From: Candidatus Zambryskiibacteriota bacterium
GTDB taxonomy: Bacteria; Patescibacteriota; Minisyncoccia; Phycocordibacterales; DATDWN01
Direction: 5' to 3'
DNA length: 64,000 nt
NCBI GenBank assembly: GCA_003173855.1
Contig: PPGI01000010.1
Coordinates: forward strand, 62,304 to 126,303
Made by a program: the position numbers and the translations under genes. Positions 7,383 through 57,946 of this stretch are shown here, one piece after another. Under the pieces are notes generated by a model that was given only the letters and a program-made list of their open reading frames with translations, made no database searches and had not been told where the DNA came from. Numbering within the stretch: the first letter of the stretch is position 1; each line of letters opens with the position of its first letter.

Positions 7383-7406
7383 AATAGGAAAGAGCCACCT
7401 TGCGAG
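7383..7406. terminator. Bidirectional terminator hairpin (AGAGCCAC ttgcga GTGGCTCT)
   Basis: Perfect 8-bp stem. A T-rich tract follows on the minus strand and the S41 gene lies just upstream on plus. Confidence 0.5.
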
Positions 7407-7450
7407 TGGCTCTTGTGGCGGCGGGATGGTCGTGCGGGGTTCGTGGCAGG

Positions 7451-7636
7451 TTAATGTCGAATGCCGATTTCCGGAGTGAGATTCCTGTGCCTTCGAATCC
7501 TGTTTGGATTTTCAACTGGAGCTTGATTCCAGTTGTGAAAGGCGATTGCGCCTTGAAGTCGGCTCACAGAAGCACGAAATTCGTACCTCTTTCGGCGAAT
7601 TCTCCTACGTCTTTCACGCAGGTGCTCAAATTTCAT
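7451..7636 (-). CDS. Small Arg-rich ORF (60 aa, MKFEHLRERRRRIRRKRYEF...) in a GC-rich 260-bp element. Could instead be an ncRNA.
   Basis: Near-consensus SD AGAGGAGAAATCT before ATG (rc of 7634-7636). Candidate promoter TTGACA-N15-GATAAT upstream on minus. A 3' UTR runs into the 7383-7406 terminator. Codon usage is foreign to the host. Confidence 0.25.
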   Translation of the reverse strand: MKFEHLRERRRRIRRKRYEFRASVSRLQGAIAFHNWNQAPVENPNRIRRHRNLTPEIGIRH

Positions 7637-7728
7637 AGATTTCTCCTCTGGCAATAAATTATCATATTAATTGATTTATGTCAAATATTATTTTTTATTT
7701 TGTTATCCACAGAATTTCACTTGCGGAG

Positions 7729-20360: not shown

Positions 20361-20543
20361 CCTCGGTCTTTTTTGTCCGATTTCTGTGTTACTCTCTCCG
20401 GTGCTCCTTCACCTTACTATTAGTAAGGCTCAGTTCGCTCCTCACTCGTGTCTTGAACTCGAACAAAAATCCTCGAGGATTCTTTATGTAATTGTATTTG
20501 ACATGGTTTGATAAATGTGCTATTTTCATTGCAGGAGGTTTCT

Positions 20544-20744
20544 ATGTTGCTTACGGTGATCTGGGAAGCCATTGGGTGGTCAGCTGACATCCTATTTCTT
20601 GTGTCTTACTTTCTGGTTTCCAGGAAAAAGATTACAGGTGAGGGATCAGTTTTCAACTGGATGAACCTTGGTGGCGCAACCTCCTATGGCATCTACGCCA
20701 TACACAAAGATGCCTATCCCGTCCTCATCCTCGAAATCTTCTAG
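20544..20744 (+). CDS. Small membrane protein (66 aa)
   Basis: Consensus SD GCAGGAGG before ATG 20544. One or two TM helices. Confidence 0.4.
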   Translation: MLLTVIWEAIGWSADILFLVSYFLVSRKKITGEGSVFNWMNLGGATSYGIYAIHKDAYPVLILEIF

Positions 20745-20850
20745 GGAGCTATTGCAGTTACAGCACTTCGTAAACTGTATCTTTCCAGGAAAGAACCTTC
20801 CATCACACAGGTCTTTAATTGACCTCCTACCAAAGAAGACAATGTCTTCT

Positions 20851-20880
20851 CCGCCGCGATCCTTTGCGGCGTTTTTTATT
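20851..20880 (+). terminator. Rho-independent terminator (CGCCGC gatccttt GCGGCG TTTTTTATT)
   Basis: Stem, loop and U-tract. Confidence 0.5.
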
Positions 20881-20892
20881 GCATTTGAAAAT

Positions 20893-20909
20893 TTACATTA
20901 TTAATGTAA
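20893..20909. promoter_or_regulatory. 17-bp perfect palindrome TTACATTA-T-TAATGTAA inside the promoter (TTGAAA -35) of the next gene
   Basis: Inverted-repeat, operator-like site between the TTGAAA at 20885 and the SD/ATG at 20931. Confidence 0.45.
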
Positions 20910-20930
20910 TGTATTATCGGAGGTTTTTTG

Positions 20931-21299
20931 ATGATCAATGTTTACTCATATCGAGGGAATGTACCTGCTCTGTTTATTCTTGTTCTGGCAATCGTTGGGA
21001 TATGGGTTAGAACAGCTCCAGTGAAATCAGAAACACAGCAAACAGAGTCGGAAAAGTACGAGCATGGAGCTTGCTACTACGAAAAGGAACAACAAAATTC
21101 GACTGTAAAGAAAATTTATCTTGCAAAGGGAGAAAAACTTCGATTTCCAAGCGTAACGGTTCATGCTGGTTACTCTCATGGTATTGAGCCAATCACAAGC
21201 CCACATCAATCAGATGAGCGTCCAACTTGCTACACAGTTTGGGGTAGGGACGATGATGTACGTCAACCTTATCTCTATATTTTCGAATGGGGATTCTGA
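20931..21299 (+). CDS. Hypothetical exported/anchored protein (122 aa) with an N-terminal TM helix and Cys pairs
   Basis: SD GGAGG 7 nt upstream. Terminator immediately downstream. Confidence 0.45.
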   Translation: MINVYSYRGNVPALFILVLAIVGIWVRTAPVKSETQQTESEKYEHGACYYEKEQQNSTVKKIYLAKGEKLRFPSVTVHAGYSHGIEPITSPHQSDERPTCYTVWGRDDDVRQPYLYIFEWGF

Positions 21300-21302
21300 A
21301 AC

Positions 21303-21345
21303 CAACGTCGCGACAAAATATCGTCGCGGCGTTTTCATTTTAAAA
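21303..21345 (+). terminator. Rho-independent terminator
   Basis: ACGTCGCGAC-loop-GTCGCGGCGT stem with one G-U pair, followed by TTTTCATTTT. Confidence 0.45.
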
Positions 21346-21375
21346 AATTTAAAGTAAAATAAATTCGGAGGGGCC

Positions 21376-21534
21376 ATGAGCAGACCGAAAAGATGTTCAC
21401 GCTGCGGAAGTTCAAACATCCAAGTAATCACCAGTGGTTACAAATGTGGGGACTGCAAGAAGCCTGCTGCAACAGTCGAAACAGTTCTCACTCATGCAGT
21501 GAAAGGGACGCAAGCAATCGAGCGTCCAAACTAA
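21376..21534 (+). CDS. Zinc-ribbon small protein (52 aa; CxxC...CxxC)
   Basis: SD GGAGGGG before ATG 21376. Sequence MSRPKRCSRCGSSNIQVITSGYKCGDCKKPA. Strong terminator follows. Below the ORF-track size cutoff. Confidence 0.5.
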   Translation: MSRPKRCSRCGSSNIQVITSGYKCGDCKKPAATVETVLTHAVKGTQAIERPN

Positions 21535-21540
21535 TATTTA

Positions 21541-21572
21541 ACCCCGCACTTCAACCGAAGTGCGGGGTTCGT
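21541..21572 (+). terminator. Rho-independent terminator (CCCCGCACTTC aacc GAAGTGCGGGG)
   Basis: 11-bp perfect stem followed by TTCGTGATATTCT. Confidence 0.5.
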
Positions 21573-25260: not shown

Positions 25261-26055
25261 ATGAGTCATTTTGTAGCAATTATTCTCGGAGCTGTTGAAG
25301 GATTAACAGAGTTTATTCCTATTTCTTCGTCAGGGCATTTGATAGTTGTTCGTGAACTTTTGCATGTTAATGATTCAAACGGACTGGCATTTGATGCCAT
25401 AATTCAGCTTGCAGCAACTCTGGCTTTAGTTTTTTACTTTTGGAAAGACATCTGGCATTTGATTGTCACTTTTTTTAAATTTATTTTTGGCAGGTCCATT
25501 GAACAGAGAGATCTTACGTTTTTGGTTGCAATAATTATTGGAACTATTCCGGCTGTAATTCTAGGCTTATTTTTAGAAAAAACACTGGAGACGCTTTTTA
25601 GAAATATTCATTTAGTAGCTTTTGCTTTGCTCGCAGGAAGTGCACTGATGTGGTATGCCCAAAGAGTGGCAAAACATAATAAAGGATTGCATGTAAAAAA
25701 TGCATTCATAATTGGACTATATCAATGTCTTGCATTAATTCCTGGGATCTCACGATCAGGGGCAACTATTTCTGGAGGATTAATTGAAGGTCTTGATCAA
25801 GAACAAGCAGTCAGATTTTCATTTCTTTTATCAGTTCCAATTCTAATAGGTTCTGGTTTAAAGAAATTATTTGAAGTTAGGCATTTAATATTAGGAAATA
25901 CATTTGGATCTTCATTGTTTTTAGGCTCAATCACTGCCTTTATTGTCGGATTATTATCCATTAGATTTCTTATTAAATATCTTAAAACAAACAATCTAAA
26001 TATCTTCATATACTACAGAATAGCCTTATTTTTAGCCATATTTTTACTATTTTAG
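25261..26055 (+). CDS. uppP: Undecaprenyl-diphosphatase
   Basis: VEGLTEFIPISSSGHL and SRSGATISGGL signature motifs. Confidence 0.85.
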   Translation: MSHFVAIILGAVEGLTEFIPISSSGHLIVVRELLHVNDSNGLAFDAIIQLAATLALVFYFWKDIWHLIVTFFKFIFGRSIEQRDLTFLVAIIIGTIPAVILGLFLEKTLETLFRNIHLVAFALLAGSALMWYAQRVAKHNKGLHVKNAFIIGLYQCLALIPGISRSGATISGGLIEGLDQEQAVRFSFLLSVPILIGSGLKKLFEVRHLILGNTFGSSLFLGSITAFIVGLLSIRFLIKYLKTNNLNIFIYYRIALFLAIFLLF

Positions 26056-26073
26056 TAATTAAATTAAATCTGC

Positions 26074-26102
26074 TTGACATAGTTTAAGTAGTATGTTAAT
26101 CT
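26074..26102 (+). promoter_or_regulatory. Promoter TGCTTGACA-N17-TAATCTTA (copy 1)
   Basis: Consensus -35, 17-bp spacer, TAATCT -10. Extended identity with copy 2 (AAATnTGCTTGAC...TAATCTTA). Confidence 0.5.
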
Positions 26103-26161
26103 TATTTCCAGAAACATGGGGCAATTTCGCCTCAGAGTTCTCAAAAGGTAGGGCAAAAGTC

Positions 26162-26794
26162 ATGGCCAAGGAAATGCTGACTCTCGACCAGGTCACCGAA
26201 AACGTCGGAGGCCTCATCAAGACCATGAAGTCCGTCAAGGGCTTCCGGATCGGCGAGCCGATCACAGGCTTCGTCAAGAAGATGGCCGATGCCATCGAGG
26301 CCGGCAAGCAGGCCGACGCCATCGATGTCGGTGAGGAGCTCGTCTCCGTGGGTCGCTCGATCCTCGGCAAGTTCATCAGGAACTCAGTCGTGGATCAGAA
26401 GAGCGAGGCGGACGAGATGCTCCTCCGCCAGGCACACTTCAACAAGATCCTGTCGCGGGTCGTCGCCGAGGGTTACGACGAAGACATCGTCGCTCGTCTC
26501 GAGAAGCTTCGCAAGGAACTCGAGGAGGCGGTGAACGTCGAGCGCAACGGAACCTTCGAAGTTCGCATCGGCGCCTACAACGCCATGTCTCAGGCAGCGG
26601 AAGATGCTGACAAGGAACAGGAGAAGCGTGACAGAGTTCGTCGTGTTCAGAGGCAAGAAGCCGCTCGCGCTGCGGCGTCGAACGGCAAGAAGGACGCTCT
26701 TCCGCAGGTTCCGACGAACAAGGGCACCGAACAGCGCGCCACCCTGCTCGCCGCTCGCAAGCAGCAAGCCGACGCCCTGAAGGCACTCCTCTAA
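26162..26794 (+). CDS. Hypothetical alpha-helical Ala/Glu/Lys/Arg-rich protein (211 aa) with foreign high-GC codon usage
   Basis: ATG 26162 after AAGGTAGGG. GC3-biased codons (AAG, GTC, GCC, CGC) unlike the host. Terminator downstream. Confidence 0.5.
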   Translation: MAKEMLTLDQVTENVGGLIKTMKSVKGFRIGEPITGFVKKMADAIEAGKQADAIDVGEELVSVGRSILGKFIRNSVVDQKSEADEMLLRQAHFNKILSRVVAEGYDEDIVARLEKLRKELEEAVNVERNGTFEVRIGAYNAMSQAAEDADKEQEKRDRVRRVQRQEAARAAASNGKKDALPQVPTNKGTEQRATLLAARKQQADALKALL

Positions 26795-26819
26795 TCCGTC
26801 GGTCGACGACGTGTTCCAC

Positions 26820-26860
26820 AAGTCCGGGAAGGACAGCAAACTTCCCGGACTTTTCTATTG
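26820..26860 (+). terminator. Rho-independent terminator (AGTCCGGGAAG...CTTCCCGGACT TTTTCTATTG)
   Basis: 11-bp stem plus U-tract. Confidence 0.5.
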
Positions 26861-26871
26861 TTTAAATGTGC

Positions 26872-26900
26872 TTGACGAAAAGTGAAGATCATGATAATCT
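26872..26900 (+). promoter_or_regulatory. Promoter TGCTTGACG-N17-TAATCTTA (copy 2)
   Basis: Same architecture and extended flanks as copy 1. Confidence 0.5.
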
Positions 26901-26974
26901 TACCTTGTTGATACATTAGTTCATTCAGATCACCGTTCGCCTTGAGGCGAACACAAGCGAAGGGAGCGCAGACA

Positions 26975-27172
26975 ATGAGGACACACTCGCCGCCGATGGC
27001 GGCCCACACCTTCGGGGGAGCGCAGAGCGCTCAGCCCCAGCATTGCATGGTTTCCAGCACGATCATCGCGATTCACGAGCAGCTCGGCGCGCGCCGCGGC
27101 CTGACCGCCGGCGACGGCGTCTCGGAGGGGACATGCTTCGCTTATACCAGTCCGGCAACTCGAGCCCGTTGA
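26975..27172 (+). CDS. GC-rich small ORF (65 aa). The whole ~350-nt transcript is highly structured, so it may instead be an ncRNA.
   Basis: SD AAGGGAG before ATG 26975. Numerous local GC hairpins. Flanked by the promoter and the 27205 terminator. Confidence 0.25.
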   Translation: MRTHSPPMAAHTFGGAQSAQPQHCMVSSTIIAIHEQLGARRGLTAGDGVSEGTCFAYTSPATRAR

Positions 27173-27204
27173 AGGGCATCCTCTGAAGAGGACTTGCGAC
27201 GGCC

Positions 27205-27245
27205 GTTGAACGGCAAACCCGGGGGAGATTTCTCTCCCGGGTGTT
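27205..27245 (+). terminator. Rho-independent terminator (CCCGGGGGAGA ttt TCTCTCCCGGG TGTTTTTATT)
   Basis: Perfect 11-bp stem plus U-tract. Marks the end of the GC-rich island. Confidence 0.55.
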
Positions 27246-27400
27246 TTTATTATTTTAATTTTTAATTACCAATTAACTAAGATTTTCAGATTTGGATGCA
27301 GTTCTAGGCGGACAAGAAAAATGCGAGGAGCCTTACAACTGTAAGGTGACGAAGATTTTTTGAAGTCCAACAACGAAATGCGCCAAATGTGAAAATCGAG

Positions 27401-27982
27401 CTAGAATAAACTTTGTGTTTTAACTTCAGGTACTGGCTCCCAATGCTTAGTTTCCAATTTTATTTCTTTAATAAATGGTCCATCTTTAAACATTAGTTTT
27501 TTATTTTTCAGTGCATATTCGTAAACATCACGGGTTATACGGACATCATCAATACAGTATTTTTTAATCTCTTCAACACGTCCTGTCCGCCACCAGACGA
27601 TTGCATCAAAACCATGACCGCTTTTATTTATTCCAAATGTTCCTTCTGCTATTTTATCTAGACTCATTCTCCGACCATACTGTGATTTTATTTCTTTTAG
27701 GACATCGAGAGACCTGATAGATTTTAGATCGCCTTTGCCAGCACGTCTATAATATTTATTTAAAAGTGGAATATCAAAATGATCCCCAGTAAATGTAATT
27801 AATACATCAGCTTTTTCAAAATATGGCCACATTTTGTCGAATTCTTCTTCAGTAAAACATTTGAATTCATTAGTTTCGTAATCATAAATTCCGACAACAG
27901 AAATATCCAAATCAGCTGGATTGTTTGATCCCACATCCTGAAAAATATTTTTTGTTTCTATATCAAAAACTAACTTTCTCAT
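27401..27982 (-). CDS. DEDD-type 3'-5' exonuclease (RNase H-like, PolB-exonuclease-like stand-alone)
   Basis: Exo I FDIET, Exo II FTGDHFDIPLL, Exo III YCIDDV. Confidence 0.65.
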   Translation of the reverse strand: MRKLVFDIETKNIFQDVGSNNPADLDISVVGIYDYETNEFKCFTEEEFDKMWPYFEKADVLITFTGDHFDIPLLNKYYRRAGKGDLKSIRSLDVLKEIKSQYGRRMSLDKIAEGTFGINKSGHGFDAIVWWRTGRVEEIKKYCIDDVRITRDVYEYALKNKKLMFKDGPFIKEIKLETKHWEPVPEVKTQSLF

Positions 27983-28788
27983 TTGCTCATCGGAAGATTG
28001 TGTGTTTCTAGAAAGTCACGAATGGTAATATCGCCCATTCCGAAACCAACCATAGGCATAGGATCTGCTCCAAATATTTCCATTAGATTGTCATATCTTC
28101 CACCACCACAAATTGAGCGTGGGTTATCTGAATTCCTATCAAAAATTTCAAAAACCATGCCTGTGTAGTATGTTTGTCCTCGTGCAAGGGTTTTATCAAT
28201 TCTAGTATTGGTAATACCCTCATCATTCAATCTTTTAATTAGATCTTCTAAATTTTCCTTTGTATTATTTGGATAATTTAATCTAATTTCGAAATCGTCT
28301 TTTGTTGCACCAAATTTTATTAAAATCTCGTAAGCAATTTTTATAATTTCCGCATCATTTTCTTGGGGATTATTATCGATTCCAATAAGATCACAATTTA
28401 GTTGGTAGTGTTCGCGCTTACGACCTCTTTGTGGCCGCTCATATCGAAAAAGATTTGGAATAGAATACCAACGCAGAGGAAATTTAAGAGATTTACGTCT
28501 GGCGGCGACCATTCGCGCTAATGTTGGAGTCATTTCTGGACGTAAGGTAACTGAACGATTACCCCTATCAATAAAAGTAAATGTCTGTTCATTTACAATT
28601 TCTGACCCACTTTTTTCTGTATAAAGTTCTGTAGGTTCAAGTGGGGAAGCGCTGTACTCAACATATCCTTTATTCTCGCAAATCTTGCGCCAAGTGTTAA
28701 AAATATAGTTCTGTATTTTCATATCTTCCGGGTAGAAATCGCGCACTCCTTTATATGGTTCGGTAGATAGTTTTTCTTTGTCAGTCAT
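27979..28788 (-). CDS. Histidyl-tRNA synthetase catalytic-core paralog (HisZ-like, no anticodon-binding domain)
   Basis: KGVRDFYPE N-terminus, class II motif 2 region, GGGRYDNL and GFGMGD motif 3. Ends right after the catalytic core at 269 aa. Confidence 0.6.
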   Translation of the reverse strand: MTDKEKLSTEPYKGVRDFYPEDMKIQNYIFNTWRKICENKGYVEYSASPLEPTELYTEKSGSEIVNEQTFTFIDRGNRSVTLRPEMTPTLARMVAARRKSLKFPLRWYSIPNLFRYERPQRGRKREHYQLNCDLIGIDNNPQENDAEIIKIAYEILIKFGATKDDFEIRLNYPNNTKENLEDLIKRLNDEGITNTRIDKTLARGQTYYTGMVFEIFDRNSDNPRSICGGGRYDNLMEIFGADPMPMVGFGMGDITIRDFLETHNLPMSK

Positions 28789-28896: not shown

Positions 28897-29262
28897 ATGA
28901 TTTCACAGTCTGACAGACGCGAGATGCTGGCTGCGATTGGGAGGATTCTGTGGGCATGCAGAGTGAAAAGGTGTCTCACAAGTAAAAACATAGGCTATAG
29001 AGCTGGAGTGCCTCGAGAAATTGTTGAGATGATCGAACGAGGGGAAGTGGCGGTCAAAAGCCAGATTGAAAGGGTGGTTGCTGCTTATCATTTTCACGAT
29101 GAAAGAGTGGAAGTGATCGCCAACTATTTGGCTGAAGTTTTTCCTTTCGGTGATCAAGTCGTTCAGATTGAAGTTCCTGTAACGAGAGATCCTGCGCCAA
29201 GGATTAGAAACAGGGCGCCAAAACAGGCAATACGACCATCTCATGGATGGTCCGGTCGGTAA
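28897..29262 (+). CDS. XRE-family HTH transcriptional regulator (paralog 1)
   Basis: YRAGVPREIVEMIERGE helix-turn-helix. Elevated GC. Confidence 0.55.
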   Translation: MISQSDRREMLAAIGRILWACRVKRCLTSKNIGYRAGVPREIVEMIERGEVAVKSQIERVVAAYHFHDERVEVIANYLAEVFPFGDQVVQIEVPVTRDPAPRIRNRAPKQAIRPSHGWSGR

Positions 29263-29266
29263 AGAT

Positions 29267-29303
29267 AGAGCACCAGTTTCGGCTGGTGCTCTTTGATTTT
29301 TAC
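29267..29303 (+). terminator. Rho-independent terminator (AGAGCACCAG tttcgg CTGGTGCTCT TTGATTTTTAC)
   Basis: Perfect 10-bp stem plus U-tract. Confidence 0.55.
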
Positions 29304-29368
29304 TCCAAAATTTGCAATAATTGATGATGGACTCTGTTTGCGAATGAACGCAAATAGGGAAATCGGAG

Positions 29369-29713
29369 GTGGCGATGCATATTCGCAATTCACCTGCAGA
29401 GATTCTTGGCAAGCTCATCCGCATAAATCGTGTGCTAACGATGAGTATGGGCAGCAAGGAAGAGCTTGCCGCAAAAGCGAATGTACCCGTCCAGGTGATT
29501 ACCTGGTTGGAGAAAGGAGAAGGAGAAAAACCTGACAGATCATTTGCCGAAAGAGTTCTTGATACTTTCAAGTTGACTGACAGGCCTCGCAGGTATCTTC
29601 AAGGACTGTTAAACACAGTCTTTGAACCCTCCACCATTCCGGTTGTCAAAGCCCCATTGGCTGCTTGGCAACCTCCAATTCGATGGAGGAGAGACACTCA
29701 ATTCCATAGATAA
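29369..29713 (+). CDS. XRE-family HTH transcriptional regulator (paralog 2)
   Basis: LAAKANVPVQVITWLEKGE HTH. Alignable with paralog 1. SD GGAGGTGG. Confidence 0.55.
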   Translation: MAMHIRNSPAEILGKLIRINRVLTMSMGSKEELAAKANVPVQVITWLEKGEGEKPDRSFAERVLDTFKLTDRPRRYLQGLLNTVFEPSTIPVVKAPLAAWQPPIRWRRDTQFHR

Positions 29714-54196: not shown

Positions 54197-54269
54197 CGTG
54201 TGAGTTTGTCGAACATCTGTCGACTAAACCCACGAAAGAACATCCCAAAAAGAACTTCTAGCGAACTAA

Positions 54270-55499
54270 CTACCACTTCTTGTCTCCGCCCTTGTCTCCG
54301 CCGTGATCTCCACCTTTGTCACCACCGTGATCGGGTGGTGGAGCGGGAGTTGGGTTTGGAGGCTGGACCTGTGGTGTGGCCTTTGCCTCATTGTTATTGT
54401 TGTTCGAATTCGAATTCTTTGACACAGCGTCTGAACTCGAATCTGCTCCGGCGGCTGCGCCGGCTGAGACTTTGCCGACATTTCCGCCATCTGCTTTTGA
54501 TTCGCCTCCAGTTGCCGTAACGTTTCCGTTTTTGGCACTTGAGTTTGAATTTGACTCTCCACCATTGCCGACACCGTTTGCGGTAACAGCTCCATTGGTG
54601 GCGTTGGCTTGTCCGCCGTTTGCCTGTGAGCTCGAACTTCCGTTAGCGCTCACATTACCGTTACTCGCACTCGCCTGTCCGCCGTTTGCTTGTCCACCAT
54701 TTGCTGTGTTGTTTACAACAACTGATGGTCCGCTCGATCCAGATCCGGTAGAACCCGAACTCGAGCTTGAAGTCGATGACGAACTTGAACTGGTTGCAGA
54801 CGCGCTGCCACCAGCTCCGCCTTGACCGCCTGTTGCATTTGCCGACGCTCCGGTCTGCGTTTGATTTACGTTGACAACTGGCGCCGGAATTTTCCCGATC
54901 GCTGTGGTCATCATTGACCCGATTTTCTGGGTCTGACCGGCGAGCGTTTTTCGAACAGCATCGACAGATGCTGTGTTGGCATTCACCGCATCGTAAATCT
55001 TGCCAGTGTTGTGAGCAGTGACAAGATTTGCGTATGCAGAGATTCCACCTTCGACTGTAAGAGCAAACAACCACTTGTTCGCTGTGCTTGTTGAGCCAGC
55101 GATTCGCTCTTGAGCACGTCGGCTTCGATCAGCGATTTCGTTACCACGCTTCAACTCTTCAACCACTGCAGTTGAATCGAAATTCACTTGCGGTGGTGGC
55201 GTTGCTCTCTGCAGAAGCAGAGCGAGTGCATCTCCAGTAAACGCTGGTTGCACTGGTGCCTGCGGATTTTCCACGTGGTTCTCGATCACGATCACAGGTG
55301 CGGCCGGGTGTTCCGCGGCAATGACTTCTGCTTTGGCACGCGCTCGACCACTTGTGACCGGTTTCTTTGCTTGTGTGCAGTCAACCTGAACAGTGATCTT
55401 TGATCCGTCCGGACAGGTGACTGTTGTCGGAGTGAGCTGAGCTTCCGCAAGATTTGAACTTGCGAATGCGAGCACGATAACGAGCCAGAGTTTCCTCAT
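54270..55499 (-). CDS. Secreted protein with a long Gly/Ser/Asn/Ala low-complexity region and a C-terminal HGGDKGGD repeat
   Basis: Signal peptide MRKLWLVIVLAFASSNLAEA. GC near 50%. Confidence 0.5.
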   Translation of the reverse strand: MRKLWLVIVLAFASSNLAEAQLTPTTVTCPDGSKITVQVDCTQAKKPVTSGRARAKAEVIAAEHPAAPVIVIENHVENPQAPVQPAFTGDALALLLQRATPPPQVNFDSTAVVEELKRGNEIADRSRRAQERIAGSTSTANKWLFALTVEGGISAYANLVTAHNTGKIYDAVNANTASVDAVRKTLAGQTQKIGSMMTTAIGKIPAPVVNVNQTQTGASANATGGQGGAGGSASATSSSSSSTSSSSSGSTGSGSSGPSVVVNNTANGGQANGGQASASNGNVSANGSSSSQANGGQANATNGAVTANGVGNGGESNSNSSAKNGNVTATGGESKADGGNVGKVSAGAAAGADSSSDAVSKNSNSNNNNNEAKATPQVQPPNPTPAPPPDHGGDKGGDHGGDKGGDKKW

Positions 55500-55510
55500 A
55501 GTTTCCTCTG

Positions 55511-56836
55511 CTATTGGACTAGCCCTAGAAGGGCAGCTGTTTGTCTTTGCTCCTTCTCAATTTTGTGGCGGATAAATCCACTCAAAACTGGAAGAGTTCC
55601 TTCGACTACTCCACTTACACCCCCGGTTGAGATTCCCAGTGCAACTGGAACACCGTAGGTTAAAGTTCCAAAGAGTAGTTTAGAGCCGAACGATTGTTGA
55701 CTCGGGTAAGTTGCGAGGAGTTTTCCATAACGCTTTTTTGATACGCTAGGAATTTTTTCCTCTTTGACTTTGGTTGCGTGATCTCGAAGGTCATTACTTC
55801 CGATTTCTGCAAAACGTTCTCCTCCGTGGTCAAAGACCACAGAAGAAGATTCTTGCACCGGAAGATCACGTGTCAGAACAACCTTGATTGCGTAGTTTCC
55901 ATCAGCGGTGTTCTCGATGATGGTAACTGTTTCTTTCCGATGCCAATTTCCATTCTCGTCTTTTGAAACGAGAAGTAGCGCCGGATGAGGTCCTTCTTTT
56001 ACGTCACGAAATTCTTTTCCACTAATGCGAATTTCGTAAACGCCCTTCTTTATAATTTTCAGTGAAGTTTTAGTTTCCGAAGCTATCACTCCACTACCAT
56101 CTTCGGATTTTGGATCCGGAGTCCTTTCCACTTCAGCACGAACATCATTCGTTCTGAAGGAGACCGAAACTGATCTTCCAAACGTTCCTGAGACGTACTC
56201 GGGAGCATTTGGTGTTTCCTCTACTGTCGTACCAGATTCAGGTGCCTGGGAAGTAACTTGGACAGTAGACTTCTCTGGCGAAACCTTTCGGGGTTTGCTT
56301 TGCACTTTACGTGCTACCTGAATTTTTTCTGGGTGCGGCAGATTGAACAAATCGCATGGAATCACAAGAGTCCAACCCACTTCGATGTGGTTTGGATTCC
56401 GGATCTCTACGATCCGTGATCCCACTTGCCTTGAAATAATATGGTAAGCGGAGAGCTCACCATAATAATCAAGAGCAATTTGTCCAAGCGTATCACCTTT
56501 GACCACTTCTCGTTCCAAGTTGCTGCAAGCATCTGGAGTAAGAGGTGTATCGGTGCTCTTCTTTGATGCTCCGGCTCTGCGGGCTTCAAGTTCTGCAAGA
56601 GCGGGGGCATCAATCTTTCTCTGTTGGGCTTTTCCTAATTCAAGTCCACCACCAAAGCCCAGCGCAAGAATTATTGCAGCAAGAACTGTTGCTGCAAGCG
56701 CTGAACCCAAAATGGTCTGCTTGATTCGTTCCCAACGGAGCCTTTCTCGGATCCTTGCCCATCTGTTTTCTACTACGATTACAGAGGGATTCTTACGGAC
56801 ACTCATTTGTCCACTCCTTCCCGAAAGTTTCGGCAA
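55511..56836 (-). CDS. LysM-domain membrane protein
   Basis: Cytoplasmic N-terminus, one TM helix, LysM (VKGDTLGQIALDYYG...GWTLVIP), and a C-terminal Gly-rich hydrophobic segment. Confidence 0.55.
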   Translation of the reverse strand: MPKLSGRSGQMSVRKNPSVIVVENRWARIRERLRWERIKQTILGSALAATVLAAIILALGFGGGLELGKAQQRKIDAPALAELEARRAGASKKSTDTPLTPDACSNLEREVVKGDTLGQIALDYYGELSAYHIISRQVGSRIVEIRNPNHIEVGWTLVIPCDLFNLPHPEKIQVARKVQSKPRKVSPEKSTVQVTSQAPESGTTVEETPNAPEYVSGTFGRSVSVSFRTNDVRAEVERTPDPKSEDGSGVIASETKTSLKIIKKGVYEIRISGKEFRDVKEGPHPALLLVSKDENGNWHRKETVTIIENTADGNYAIKVVLTRDLPVQESSSVVFDHGGERFAEIGSNDLRDHATKVKEEKIPSVSKKRYGKLLATYPSQQSFGSKLLFGTLTYGVPVALGISTGGVSGVVEGTLPVLSGFIRHKIEKEQRQTAALLGLVQ

Positions 56837-56873
56837 GAGCCTCTATCATCAACTTGTTTCCACTTAATAAAAC

Positions 56874-56892
56874 TGTCCCGGTTCCGGCAACA
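56874..56892. repeat. 19-bp direct repeat TGTCCCGGTTCCGGCAACA (copy 1)
   Basis: Exact 19/19 match with copy 2, 90 bp away, in the promoter region of the LysM gene. Confidence 0.6.
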
Positions 56893-56963
56893 GCTCATCT
56901 CATGGTCATTTTTGAAGATTTTGGTTTCCCGCACTTTCGAGATTCTTTTCTTTGTTTGTGTGA

Positions 56964-56982
56964 TGTCCCGGTTCCGGCAACA
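56964..56982. repeat. 19-bp direct repeat TGTCCCGGTTCCGGCAACA (copy 2)
   Basis: Exact 19/19 match with copy 1. Confidence 0.6.
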
Positions 56983-57066
56983 AAACACTATTTAAAGAAA
57001 GGAATGTACGAAAGAGTTTCCGCTTTCAAACGTTGATGTCGTGATTGTGGTTGTTAGGTCGCTTTC

Positions 57067-57777
57067 TTAGGCTGTCGGCGAGATTGCTCGAGCTGTTCTC
57101 TGCGATCTCGGTTTTCCAACCGTTCCGAGAACGATCTGCTCAGTCATATTCAAACGTGCTGACCAAGCAACTTCCACGTCTTCCTCGAGATTTTGGTTTT
57201 CGCTTGCTTTAAACAGTACTCGAGGATCACCATTTTTGATGAAGAAATCTGCGTTAGCGAACTTTCCTTTACCTGGATCTGCATTTAGAACAAACCTACA
57301 GTACACAGGTTTTTGCCCCTGAGCATAGTAGAAAGCTTTGATTTGCTCAAGTTCGGGATTTGTTATCCGAACTTTTTTTGTGTTCATGTAGATCAGTACT
57401 CCGAGAATAGTAGTAAGTATCAGAGTAATGATACTGCTGAACACAACTACATAATTTCTCGTTGACTGACTTTCTTCCCTGACCAGTTTTTCGATTCTGG
57501 TCAATCGATCGTTAGTTTTTTTCTCGAGAGCGACTTGTGAAGTCGAGAGCTGTTTTGCTCTAGTCTCACTTTTTTTGTCGATTTCATGAACCTCACTCGT
57601 CAGATCTTTTTTGACGGTGTTCAGATTTCGACGAGCTTCGGCCCGAACCGAATTGAGTTGCCGTACTGTGACGGCTTCGTCAGCTTCCGGTCTTCGAGCG
57701 TGCTGTGCCTCGAGCCTCGTATTTATTGCGAGGCAGGCAAGAATCGTGATGGTCGCGATCGTCAGTCTGCTTCGCAT
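57067..57777 (-). CDS. Hypothetical coiled-coil protein with a signal peptide and an internal TM helix
   Basis: SD GGAGAG before ATG. Coiled-coil region, then VVVFSSIITLILTTILGVLIY TM. GC near 50%. Confidence 0.5.
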   Translation of the reverse strand: MRSRLTIATITILACLAINTRLEAQHARRPEADEAVTVRQLNSVRAEARRNLNTVKKDLTSEVHEIDKKSETRAKQLSTSQVALEKKTNDRLTRIEKLVREESQSTRNYVVVFSSIITLILTTILGVLIYMNTKKVRITNPELEQIKAFYYAQGQKPVYCRFVLNADPGKGKFANADFFIKNGDPRVLFKASENQNLEEDVEVAWSARLNMTEQIVLGTVGKPRSQRTARAISPTA

Positions 57778-57946
57778 TTTCTCTCCAATTCAAAATGACG
57801 GCTAAAGGCTAGGCCTTGCCGTGTTTGTCAAAGAAACCCTAAAAATTATCACATGAGTCAAATGAATGAATCATGAATAATTTTAATCTATATTTATTAT
57901 TTTTTTAGGTTTGTCCACTCCAAAAAAACCAAAATTTATGGCTTAA

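Follow-up and report, generated by a model that had tools for sequence, protein, structure and literature searches.

Why should little more than a kilobase of GC-rich DNA lie in the AT-rich genome of an ultra-small bacterium, and what might it encode? The window considered here, that is, the whole 64-kb stretch of DNA that was analysed, has a mean GC content of 37% (0.374) and carries rpoB, rpoC, dnaG, rpoD, uppP, the catalytic core of hisS, and genes for a UvrD/PD-(D/E)XK helicase, a DsbA-like protein and a DEDD/RNase-H-like exonuclease. The closest relatives of these genes are found in metagenome-assembled genomes labelled Zambryskibacteria, Paceibacterota or Minisyncoccia, all of the Candidate Phyla Radiation (CPR, Patescibacteria), and by these matches the host is an ultra-small, AT-rich, Zambryskibacteria-like CPR bacterium (Paceibacterota). 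Downstream of uppP the GC content climbs from 0.25-0.35 at 25900-26199 to 0.53-0.66 at 26100-27199, and it is back at 0.36 by 27300. The explanation that we consider best, and to which we give about even chances, is that this island consists of two independent accessory cassettes in a variable site, the second of which may be an arrest-type translation-state sensor or a ribosome-stabilised RNA. It builds on the anatomy, families and synteny of the two units, on a persistent GC richness, on an enriched peptide motif and on a covarying stem, all of which are directly observed.

The initial annotation had reported a GC-rich island with two transcription units, the first of them foreign to the host in its codon usage. 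Recomputation bears this out. An island caller run on the whole window delimited 26105-27265 at 0.58 GC, and both the composition and the codon usage of this segment are atypical, as is expected of a genomic island. The unit 1 gene has a GC content of 0.64/0.38/0.76 at its first, second and third codon positions, whereas GC at the third position (GC3) is 0.19-0.46 in all other open reading frames (ORFs) of at least 120 aa in the window, rpoB and rpoC included, with the exception of one spurious antisense frame (28903-29424, GC3 0.53). Codon choice is inverted as well: the ratio of AAA to AAG for Lys is 0:19 in unit 1 and 237:50 in host genes, that of ATT:ATC:ATA for Ile is 0:10:0 and 228:51:32, respectively, and CGA, the preferred Arg codon of the host, is never used. 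The annotation was also right that neither unit can be matched to a known family. Searches of Rfam, Pfam, PHROGs, PDB, NCBIfam and PADLOC, together with fold searches, placed neither of them, and the two units fit no catalogued family.

Two cassettes at a variable site

The two units have the following parts.

26071-26104, plus strand: unit 1 promoter, with a -35 element TTGACA (26074-26079), a 17-nt spacer and an extended -10 element TGtTAATCT (26094-26102)
26117-26134, plus strand: stem-loop in the unit 1 5′ untranslated region (UTR), TGGGGC-AATTTC-GCCTCA, with a 6-bp stem, upstream of the Shine-Dalgarno sequence
26162-26794, plus strand: unit 1 coding sequence of 210 aa with its ATG at 26162, for a 23-kDa orphan all-helical protein
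26820-26855, plus strand: unit 1 terminator, with a 12-bp perfect stem (26820-26831 / 26841-26852), a 9-nt loop and a short, interrupted T tract
26869-26902, plus strand: unit 2 promoter, with a -35 element TTGACG (26872-26877) and an extended -10 element TGaTAATCT (26892-26900)
26918-26952, plus strand: unit 2 leader, with the family motif AGUUCAUUCAG (26918-26928) and a 7-bp hairpin GUUCGCC-UUGA-GGCGAAC (26935-26952)
26975-27172, plus strand: unit 2 ORF1 of 65 aa (MRTHSPPMAAH...), with the Shine-Dalgarno sequence AAGGGAG at 26960-26966 and the H-S-P-P codons at 26984-26995
27217-27250, plus strand: unit 2 terminator, with an 11-bp stem (8 G-C pairs), a 4-nt loop and a T-run, called by a terminator scan

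Each unit thus has a promoter block and a terminator of its own. The promoters had been described as near-identical, with a 17-nt gap, and as duplicated blocks. A shared pair of 8-mers is indeed present: TGCTTGAC-N(15-19)-TAATCTTA occurs exactly twice in the window (26071-26104 and 26869-26902, both on the plus strand), against an expectation of zero from 100 shuffles. The gap between the 8-mers, however, is 18 nt, which gives a spacer of 17 nt from TTGACA or TTGACG to TAATCT. Over 41 nt each, the two blocks are 71% identical, and their identity is limited to TTAAATnTGCTTGAC and TGnTAATCTTA, the 18-nt spacers agreeing at 7 of 18 positions. The pattern TTGAC-N13-15-TGnTAnnnT has only 4 sites in the 64 kb, the unit 1 promoter among them, and a third such promoter lies at 7684 on the minus strand, with TGATAATTTA. 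In relatives, the same -35 and extended -10 architecture stands upstream of the homologues with other -10 hexamers, for example TGCTATACT and TGCTAGGAT. Because the third promoter and the relatives share this architecture, the likeness of the two blocks looks like a strong-promoter consensus of the lineage (a consensus -35 plus an extended -10) more than a duplication event. A simple duplication was rejected given the dissimilar spacers and a third promoter with the same type of -10 element. A generic promoter scan did not call the TAATCT promoters, since this hexamer matches TATAAT at only 3 of 6 positions; the TG of the extended -10 is present.

The further claim that each unit ends in a perfect terminator holds for the second unit, whose terminator, a hairpin at 27217-27242 plus a T-run, is canonical and resembles those that close unit-2-type units in relatives. 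It holds less well for the first. The stem of the unit 1 terminator is an inverted repeat of 100% complementarity (also seen inside a spurious mir-3155 Rfam alignment), but its T tract is short and interrupted, and a generic terminator scan did not call it.

Two other observations concern signals of this kind. On the minus strand, a stand-alone unit at 7400-7690 has a promoter of the form TTGACA-N14-TGATAATTTA, a gene for a 61-aa Arg-rich protein (MKFEHLRERRRRIRRKRYEF...) with no Pfam match, and then a GC-rich hairpin terminator. In addition, a 12-nt inverted repeat (26052-26063 / 27261-27272, TTAGTAATTAAA / TTTAATTACCAA, 11 of 12 positions complementary) exactly brackets the island; it was not seen at the unit ends of relatives and may be a product of chance, as 16 inverted repeats of like quality occur in 1.8 kb.

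The island is placed between the 3′ end of uppP and the convergent exonuclease gene (27401-27982). We gathered 80 syntenic loci by way of the exonuclease gene and compared the spacers between it and uppP. In 12 loci the spacer is short, at 71-228 bp, and the remaining spacers span 342-1888 bp. Some relatives have an empty site of 71-200 bp; one of them, at 200 bp, is the close relative L013 (80% exonuclease identity). Occupied sites hold unit 1 alone (L018, L054, L052), unit 2 alone (L012, L027, L049, L050 and others), both, other GC-rich RNA-like units, or ordinary AT-rich genes. The tandem of both units seen in the window recurs at this site in L026, a locus from an independent study. Elsewhere they are further apart: in L001 they are separated by 5 kb and four genes, and in JBAQWP01 they lie on different contigs. 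Upstream of the unit 2 promoters, 6 loci retain a fossil copy of the uppP 3′ end (CTTATTTTAAGCCATATTTT), a sequence whose 10 occurrences in 2.4 Mb all fall at the uppP-exonuclease locus. The variable contents of the spacer and these fossil copies suggest that the site is a hot spot for recombination or insertion and that the units are separable. The initial proposal of a single imported or duplicated module is therefore not supported. L012 is the closest relative with an occupied site, and it carries only a unit 2, orthologous to that of the window by its shared leader motif, 27-nt middle block and terminator; since this orthologue occurs without unit 1, unit 1 appears to be the more recent addition at the site in the window's lineage.

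In L014, L029, L038 and L019, further small GC-rich units occupy this hot spot; they lie downstream of the exonuclease gene in the direction of dsbA/uppP. Among them are a short unit with a Lys/Ala-rich peptide (...AAKKTAKKR) and, in L014, an Ala/Glu/Pro-rich ORF of 90 aa, and at these loci several unrelated GC-rich cassettes can stack in tandem.

Phage morons and single-gene islets offer the nearest parallel to this organization. They too are autonomous promoter-gene-terminator cassettes of atypical composition at a presence/absence-polymorphic site at the 3′ end of a conserved gene, and the fossil copies of a target gene's 3′ end at the cassette site of relatives recall single-gene islets. 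Unlike morons, the cassettes in the window have no phage or integrase context, and their composition does not resemble that of a donor, but always stays above the GC content of the host as a constant trait of the family.

Could the two units nevertheless form a functional ribonucleoprotein module, with the protein of unit 1 as a binding or working partner of the RNA of unit 2? Their adjacency in the window and in L026, the similarity of their promoter blocks, the basic C-terminal tail of the unit 1 protein and the presence of both units in at least four genomes (the window, JAHFOB01, CAYXWL01 (L001) and JBAQWP01 (L007 and L050)) would fit such a partnership. We nonetheless consider it improbable. 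A view of 8 kb to either side finds each unit alone at the same site (as in L018, L054 and L052 for unit 1 and in L012, L027, L049 and others for unit 2), four genes intervene in L001, and the unit 1 protein matches no RNA-binding domain or fold.

Unit 2 and its possible ribosome-arrest motif

Unit 2 is about 340 nt long and had been described as a non-coding RNA (ncRNA) with only a weak 65-aa ORF. Its leader motif and hairpin, which precede the first Shine-Dalgarno sequence, recur in relatives, and the hairpin is present in both the minimum-free-energy and the centroid fold. At the gathering threshold, Rfam gave no match in the whole window or in 8 related loci, and at E ≤ 10 over 25900-27500 it returned only terminator-like noise. 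RNase P, signal recognition particle RNA and 6S RNA were rejected as identities for unit 2 on the first of these results. Transfer-messenger RNA (tmRNA), suggested by the Ala-rich ends of the ORFs, was also rejected: there is no tRNA-like domain, and ARAGORN called no tmRNA or tRNA. A blastn comparison of unit 2 with 90 related loci gave no significant similarity outside its own genome.

We therefore assembled the family by synteny, obtaining 22 units of 177-457 nt and 53-65% GC with a common plan: a promoter, a leader with AGUUCAUU and a hairpin, a first Shine-Dalgarno sequence, an ORF1 of 9-65 aa starting with M-R/K, a GC-rich spacer, often a second Shine-Dalgarno sequence with a mini-ORF of 6-16 codons, and a terminator. 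The ORF1 starts and second mini-ORFs read as follows.

ORF1, window: MRTHSPP
ORF1, L001: MKAHSPP
ORF1, L026: MRFHSPP
ORF1, L050: MRLHGPP
ORF1, L049: MMKFVHGPP
ORF1, L027 and L043: MRFDLGPP
Second mini-ORFs: MERSPPK, MNKSPP, MNRSPP, MQDRAPPR, MKNKSPPSK, MIKSRKMNKGPPA, MERARPPPR, MMRARPPPL...

The ORF of unit 2 has a good Shine-Dalgarno sequence, and nothing in the family is better conserved than its start, M-R/K-x-H-S/G-P-P. In 1.17 Mb of related loci, searched on both strands, the strict combination of a Shine-Dalgarno sequence and M[RK]x(1-4)[SG]PP has hits at this syntenic site and nowhere else. A Shine-Dalgarno sequence followed by M-x(1-6)-PP is present in 13 of the 22 units (0.25 expected), and a mini-ORF that ends in PP plus 0-3 residues in 7 of them (0.08 expected), neither count being reached in any of 500 dinucleotide shuffles, although kinship among the members inflates these statistics. 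An [RHK]xPP core, with RSPP, RAPP and HGPP among its spellings, occurs in 14 of the 22 units and recurs in the second 6-16-codon mini-ORF of 8 relatives; the 53 long ORFs of the window (18,478 aa) contain a single [RH]xPP. The codons behind the motif vary synonymously (Arg AGG/CGT/CGA/CGC, Pro CCG/CCT/CCC/CCA, His CAC/CAT, and all four Gly codons), which indicates a constraint on the mini-ORFs at the level of the peptide. From these comparisons, unit 2 is a member of a fast-evolving, lineage-specific family of short GC-rich RNAs with mini-ORFs led by Shine-Dalgarno sequences.

The remainder of ORF1 is less uniform. A conserved block at 27087-27113 aligns with the end of the L012 ORF1 (...ARAATAA*), and the TGA within it (27102-27104) lies in frame +1 (...SARAAA*). 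Because of this TGA, the last 25 or so residues of the 65-aa ORF1 are unlikely to be ancestral, and they are probably a frameshifted tail. A long-range pairing of the first Shine-Dalgarno region with 27228-27235 was rejected, since a match of 8 nt is no more than chance would give in 340 nt.

Dual-function small RNAs (sRNAs) such as SgrS/SgrT, RNAIII/delta-haemolysin and SR1/SR1P have much in common with this family. They share a promoter and terminator of their own, a length of 180-460 nt, richness in GC and hairpins relative to the genome, and a small ORF within the RNA. Unit 2 has the promoter and terminator, the length of 100-500 nt and the small ORF by which such RNAs are recognised, and the Shine-Dalgarno sequence and synonymous variation suggest that the ORF is translated. 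It differs from them in that its conservation resides in the start of the ORF rather than in a seed region, and it has no Rfam family. We found nothing specific in the literature on GC-rich cassettes or sRNAs in CPR bacteria.

What might such a motif do? As discussed in PMC10951233, citing Woolstenhulme 2013 PNAS, RxPP and R/HxPP were selected genetically as strong stalling motifs, and a minimal RxPP suffices. Arrest at RAPP and RGPP resists elongation factor P (EF-P), RSPP is partly permissive, and these motifs are depleted from proteomes, ranking among the most avoided bacterial tetrapeptides (PMC12992588). Since R/HxPP and RAPP/RGPP/RSPP are established arrest sequences, the [R/H/K]-x-Pro-Pro hallmark of the unit 2 family belongs to the same sequence class. 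Like the RAPP-like and R/HxPP arrest peptides (ApdA, ApdP, ApcA and SecM), the family combines an ORF led by a Shine-Dalgarno sequence with a basic residue, S/A/G and Pro-Pro, spelled HSPP in the window and RSPP, RAPP, KSPP, HGPP or RPPP in relatives.

We propose a pause or arrest of the ribosome once Pro codons 6/7 occupy its P/A sites. There it would cover the Shine-Dalgarno sequence and start region of unit 2 and would melt a hairpin, GCCGCC-GAU-GGCGGC, that begins within the Pro codons. The opening of this hairpin could in turn change the structure, decay or lifetime of the remaining RNA, so that unit 2 might operate as a translation-state sensor or as a ribosome-stabilised RNA.

Several features of the locus weigh against this proposal, in addition to the inflated shuffle statistics mentioned above. 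In known arrest peptides the motif lies close to the C-terminus, and the gene under their control follows downstream in the same direction. That of the window occupies residues 4-7 of 65, with 3 nascent residues upstream, and unit 2 is followed by the terminator at 27217-27250 and by a convergent gene at 27401-27982; a co-directional gene after unit 2 is absent from the window and from all relatives. A C-terminal position is seen only in the second mini-ORF of 8 relatives (for instance MERSPPK, MNRSPP and MQDRAPPR), which ends 0-3 codons past PP. By inspection, the ORF1 peptides have no signal peptide or transmembrane segment, the peptides being short and their N-termini not hydrophobic. The HSPP of the window conforms to R/HxPP and not to the canonical RAPP/RGPP, His or Lys often replaces the critical Arg in the family, and 8 of its 22 members are without any [RHK]xPP ORF. 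MAFFT and RNAalifold found no consensus structure for 7 members, and the folding score of unit 2 (z = -3.06) is near -3 on both strands alike and so does not tell them apart. Moreover, CCGCCG is an easy hexamer to find in an RNA of 60% GC and could be conserved at the RNA level, even if the shuffles argue against chance. As the host is uncultured, transcription, translation, arrest and any regulatory role of the two units are here inferred from their sequence. Because of the missing co-directional gene, the lack of a localisation signal and the position of the motif at codons 4-7, we suggest that unit 2 may work like an arrest peptide and do not file it as a member of that family.

Alternatively, unit 2 might be a plain small-protein gene or a purely structural ncRNA, in which the Pro-Pro codons have no role in stalling. 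The ORF1 peptides share a central Cys-hydrophobic patch (HCMVSST, HCFIATT, NCFMTAIT, QCFLENG) that suggests a real peptide, as well as ends rich in Ala/Gly/Thr, while the better-than-shuffled folding of the RNA and the one nucleotide block conserved whatever its reading frame would suit a structural role. We hold this alternative to be possible and yet distinctly doubtful. Apart from these traits the peptides are hypervariable in sequence and in length (9-65 aa), the absence of a consensus structure speaks against a structural RNA, and conservation is strongest precisely in the [RHK]xPP core, which recurs in the second mini-ORFs and belongs to motifs that are strongly avoided in ordinary proteins (PMC12992588; one occurrence in 18,478 aa in the window). 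A simple untranslated ncRNA seems the less likely description of unit 2.

Unit 1 and the persistence of GC richness

The helical protein of unit 1 is 210 aa long, one residue shorter than first stated, with its start at ATG 26162; an annotated 233-aa form would begin within the -10 element. An acidic N-terminal bundle (pI 5.3) is followed by a basic, Arg/Lys/Gln-rich C-terminal part (pI 10), and an AlphaFold2 model built from a 4-sequence alignment has seven helices at a predicted local distance difference test score (pLDDT) of 84.6. The conserved motifs of the family are ILGxFxRNSV, ETNGTF, AYN and EQxxRD. For the protein and 39 family members, sequence searches of Pfam, PHROGs, NCBIfam, PADLOC and PDB gave no significant match, and fold searches with the unit 1 protein found no fold. 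We propose that the product is a cytoplasmic orphan all-helical protein.

These searches also bear on the suggestion that the island is a phage remnant or, more broadly, a phage moron, prophage remnant, defence system or toxin-antitoxin pair. The moron-like anatomy of a single gene with its own promoter and terminator and a weak PHROG match of the unit 1 protein to a head scaffolding protein (E = 0.026) lend this idea some colour. It is very improbable all the same, as blastn against 50,697 phage and 72,556 plasmid records turned up no similar DNA, an IMG/VR scan revealed no relative, BFVD gave no fold match, PADLOC assigned no family to the 39 members, no integrase or phage genes lie nearby, and there are no repeats like those of type III antitoxins.

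Homologues of unit 1 are rare. Four close clusters were found among 5.8 billion, and a profile search of 1.84 billion representatives retrieved only about 58; all named homologues are 'hypothetical' and come from Zambryskibacteria or Minisyncoccia. A profile-guided scan of metagenome contigs for relatives yielded one locus, the 39-sequence family profile being too diverse for use in that scan. The homologues occur at the window's own uppP-exonuclease site (L018, L026, L054 and L052), between rpoD and uvrD (L001), upstream of secE-nusG-rplK (L007) and downstream of rpoC (L096). In the window itself, the spacer between rpoD and the uvrD-like helicase gene (20498-21560), the position of the homologue in L001, is occupied by several small ORFs with terminators of their own and by a strong promoter at 20498, and has the look of another variable cassette site.

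The gene is richer in GC (0.56-0.64) than its flanks (0.36-0.52) in each of the 13 contexts examined, as the following gene/flank values show.

Window 0.59/0.37; L001 0.60/0.41; L007 0.60/0.40; L009 0.63/0.38
L018 0.58/0.39; L026 0.58/0.39; L054 0.63/0.39; L091 0.64/0.46
L092 0.59/0.40; L094 0.63/0.49; L095 0.56/0.51; L096 0.57/0.43; L098 0.62/0.52

GC3 in the family is 0.66-0.86, and the richness persists down to about 25% protein identity. Ordinary expression-linked codon bias was rejected as its source, since GC3 is no higher than 0.23-0.40 in rplK, nusG and secE of these loci. The only resemblance to a housekeeping protein that is GC-rich in every relative is the composition, which is high in all homologues examined; the protein itself is rare and not of the housekeeping kind.

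The 5′UTR stem-loop is a second conserved trait of the family. It stands at the same position in 9 homologues, often followed by UUGAGGAAAA, and also appears in the minimum-free-energy fold. Across these 9 sequences 92.6% of cells are paired, 5 of the 6 pairs show compensatory double changes, and none of 500 shuffles or slid registers reached the observed covariation score, in segments that were, to the detriment of this test, chosen by eye. The stem-loop is probably a translational operator or a stabiliser of the 5′ end or mRNA. Autoregulatory operator hairpins in the mRNAs of ribosomal and RNA-binding proteins likewise are short covarying stem-loops just before the Shine-Dalgarno sequence, and that of unit 1 is kept across homologues at 25-50% protein identity; unlike them, it is known from sequence alone and might only stabilise the 5′ end.

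Persistent GC richness also bears on the origin of the island. Acquired genes are expected to drift towards the composition of their host, and GC islands are usually read as recent transfers. The initial annotation had put forward a recent horizontal gene transfer. In such a reading, one 1.2-kb module would come from a high-GC donor, and its composition would not yet have adjusted to the host. The abrupt switch in GC and codon usage, the patchy distribution among close relatives (an empty site in L013, unit 2 without unit 1 in L012) and the occurrence of unit 1 homologues in CPR genomes of about 52% GC (L095 and L098) are what such a transfer would leave, and horizontal transfer is frequent among Patescibacteria (PMC12455944). 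We regard it as unlikely, because every homologue examined is GC-rich in its own AT-rich host, the contrast recurring in 13 of 13 contexts even at 25-50% protein identity; in hosts of 52% GC the gene is still richer than its surroundings (GC3 0.85). No donor can be named either, as the best match outside the window's own genome among the 5.8 billion clusters is 51% identical. The two units occur apart in relatives, their promoter, Shine-Dalgarno and terminator signals are of the host-lineage type, and the neighbourhood contains no integrase, transposase or other mobility gene and no flanking direct repeats, only the 12-nt inverted repeat that may be due to chance.

A misjoined or contaminating high-GC fragment would account for the sharp switch in composition, and for nothing else. 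Its junctions would have to coincide with a host-type promoter and terminator, 11 contigs from independent samples place the homologue P0002 in one and the same AT-rich context, more than 10 independent assemblies have the same GC-rich gene between AT-rich flanks, and L026 reproduces the tandem of both units. Because so many independent assemblies show the same anomaly, we consider an assembly chimera excluded.

Other GC3-rich ORFs across the 80 loci encode XRE-like regulators, secreted proteins, a low-molecular-weight phosphatase and a second family of about 215 aa. The strong promoter type precedes 24% of GC3-rich ORFs and 1% of ordinary ones, and a terminator follows 37% and 13%, respectively. 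This enrichment suggests that Zambryskibacteria-like genomes hold a class of GC-rich, autonomously transcribed accessory cassettes. We propose that their GC richness is a stable trait of the cassette families in every host and not the signature of a recent import, since a GC content near 60% whatever the composition of the host argues against DNA that has yet to adjust. Selection on the transcript, biased conversion in often-exchanged DNA and a pool of cassettes at about 60% GC are candidate causes; the last of these, as recurrent import, would count against the view of GC richness as a trait kept in place.

Two further regions of the window have a raised GC content. At 28897-29713 (0.46-0.48) lie two small ORFs of 121 and 114 aa, the latter with a weak HTH_31 match (E = 4e-4); relatives have GC3-rich ORFs (0.62-0.76) of 95-146 aa some 2-3 kb from the exonuclease gene, which are XRE-like by eye only. 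At 54210-57830, 3.5 kb at 0.43-0.54 GC carry three minus-strand ORFs (54270-55499, 55511-56806 and 57067-57777) whose proteins have signal-peptide-like N-termini, one of them with a LysM domain. This region is probably another block of the GC-rich accessory pool.

Two points are worth following up, namely the lasting GC richness and the orphan RNAs with R/HxPP mini-ORFs. Maintenance of about 60% GC down to 25% identity in genomes of 36-52% GC contradicts the expected drift towards the host, and annotation pipelines would misread such islands. If the pattern could be explained, whether by mRNA selection, biased conversion or a hidden pool of GC-rich genes, models of how base composition evolves in reduced genomes would profit. 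RAPP/RxPP-class arrest motifs are currently known as regulators of downstream genes; if short RNAs carry them with nothing downstream, the known uses of programmed arrest would be extended. Both units are strongly promoted by prediction, lineage-specific and unannotated ('hypothetical' or uncalled), which makes them candidates for abundant CPR-specific cell components. More tentatively, and with the odds against it, we suggest that Zambryskibacteria, and possibly other CPR bacteria, keep a pool of strongly promoted cassettes whose GC content of about 60% is actively selected, and that unit 2 represents a new class of 'orphan' arrest-peptide RNA. The GC content might then not be inherited from a donor but reflect selection, for example on the stability or structure of the transcript or on deliberately atypical decoding, and the stalled ribosome may sense the state of EF-P or Pro-tRNA, or protect or remodel the RNA, with no downstream gene being regulated.

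Neighbouring elements

Between the unit 2 terminator and the stop of the exonuclease gene, the plus strand at 27281-27397 can form a conserved extended hairpin of about 115 nt (-38 kcal/mol; z = -5.6, against z = -2.8 on the minus strand). Of 30 related loci, most have a comparable long hairpin at this position, also where unit 1 or unit 2 is missing, and compensatory changes affect 14 of 34 pairs in 6 loci. It has no Rfam match and may be an undescribed CPR small RNA or a 3′ element of the exonuclease gene.

The neighbouring histidyl-tRNA synthetase-like gene (27979-28788, minus strand) encodes a protein of 269 aa that comprises the catalytic core only (Pfam tRNA-synt_His and tRNA-synt_2b) and stops just past motif 3, without an anticodon-binding domain. 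The syntenic gene of L001 encodes 430 aa and includes HGTP_anticodon.

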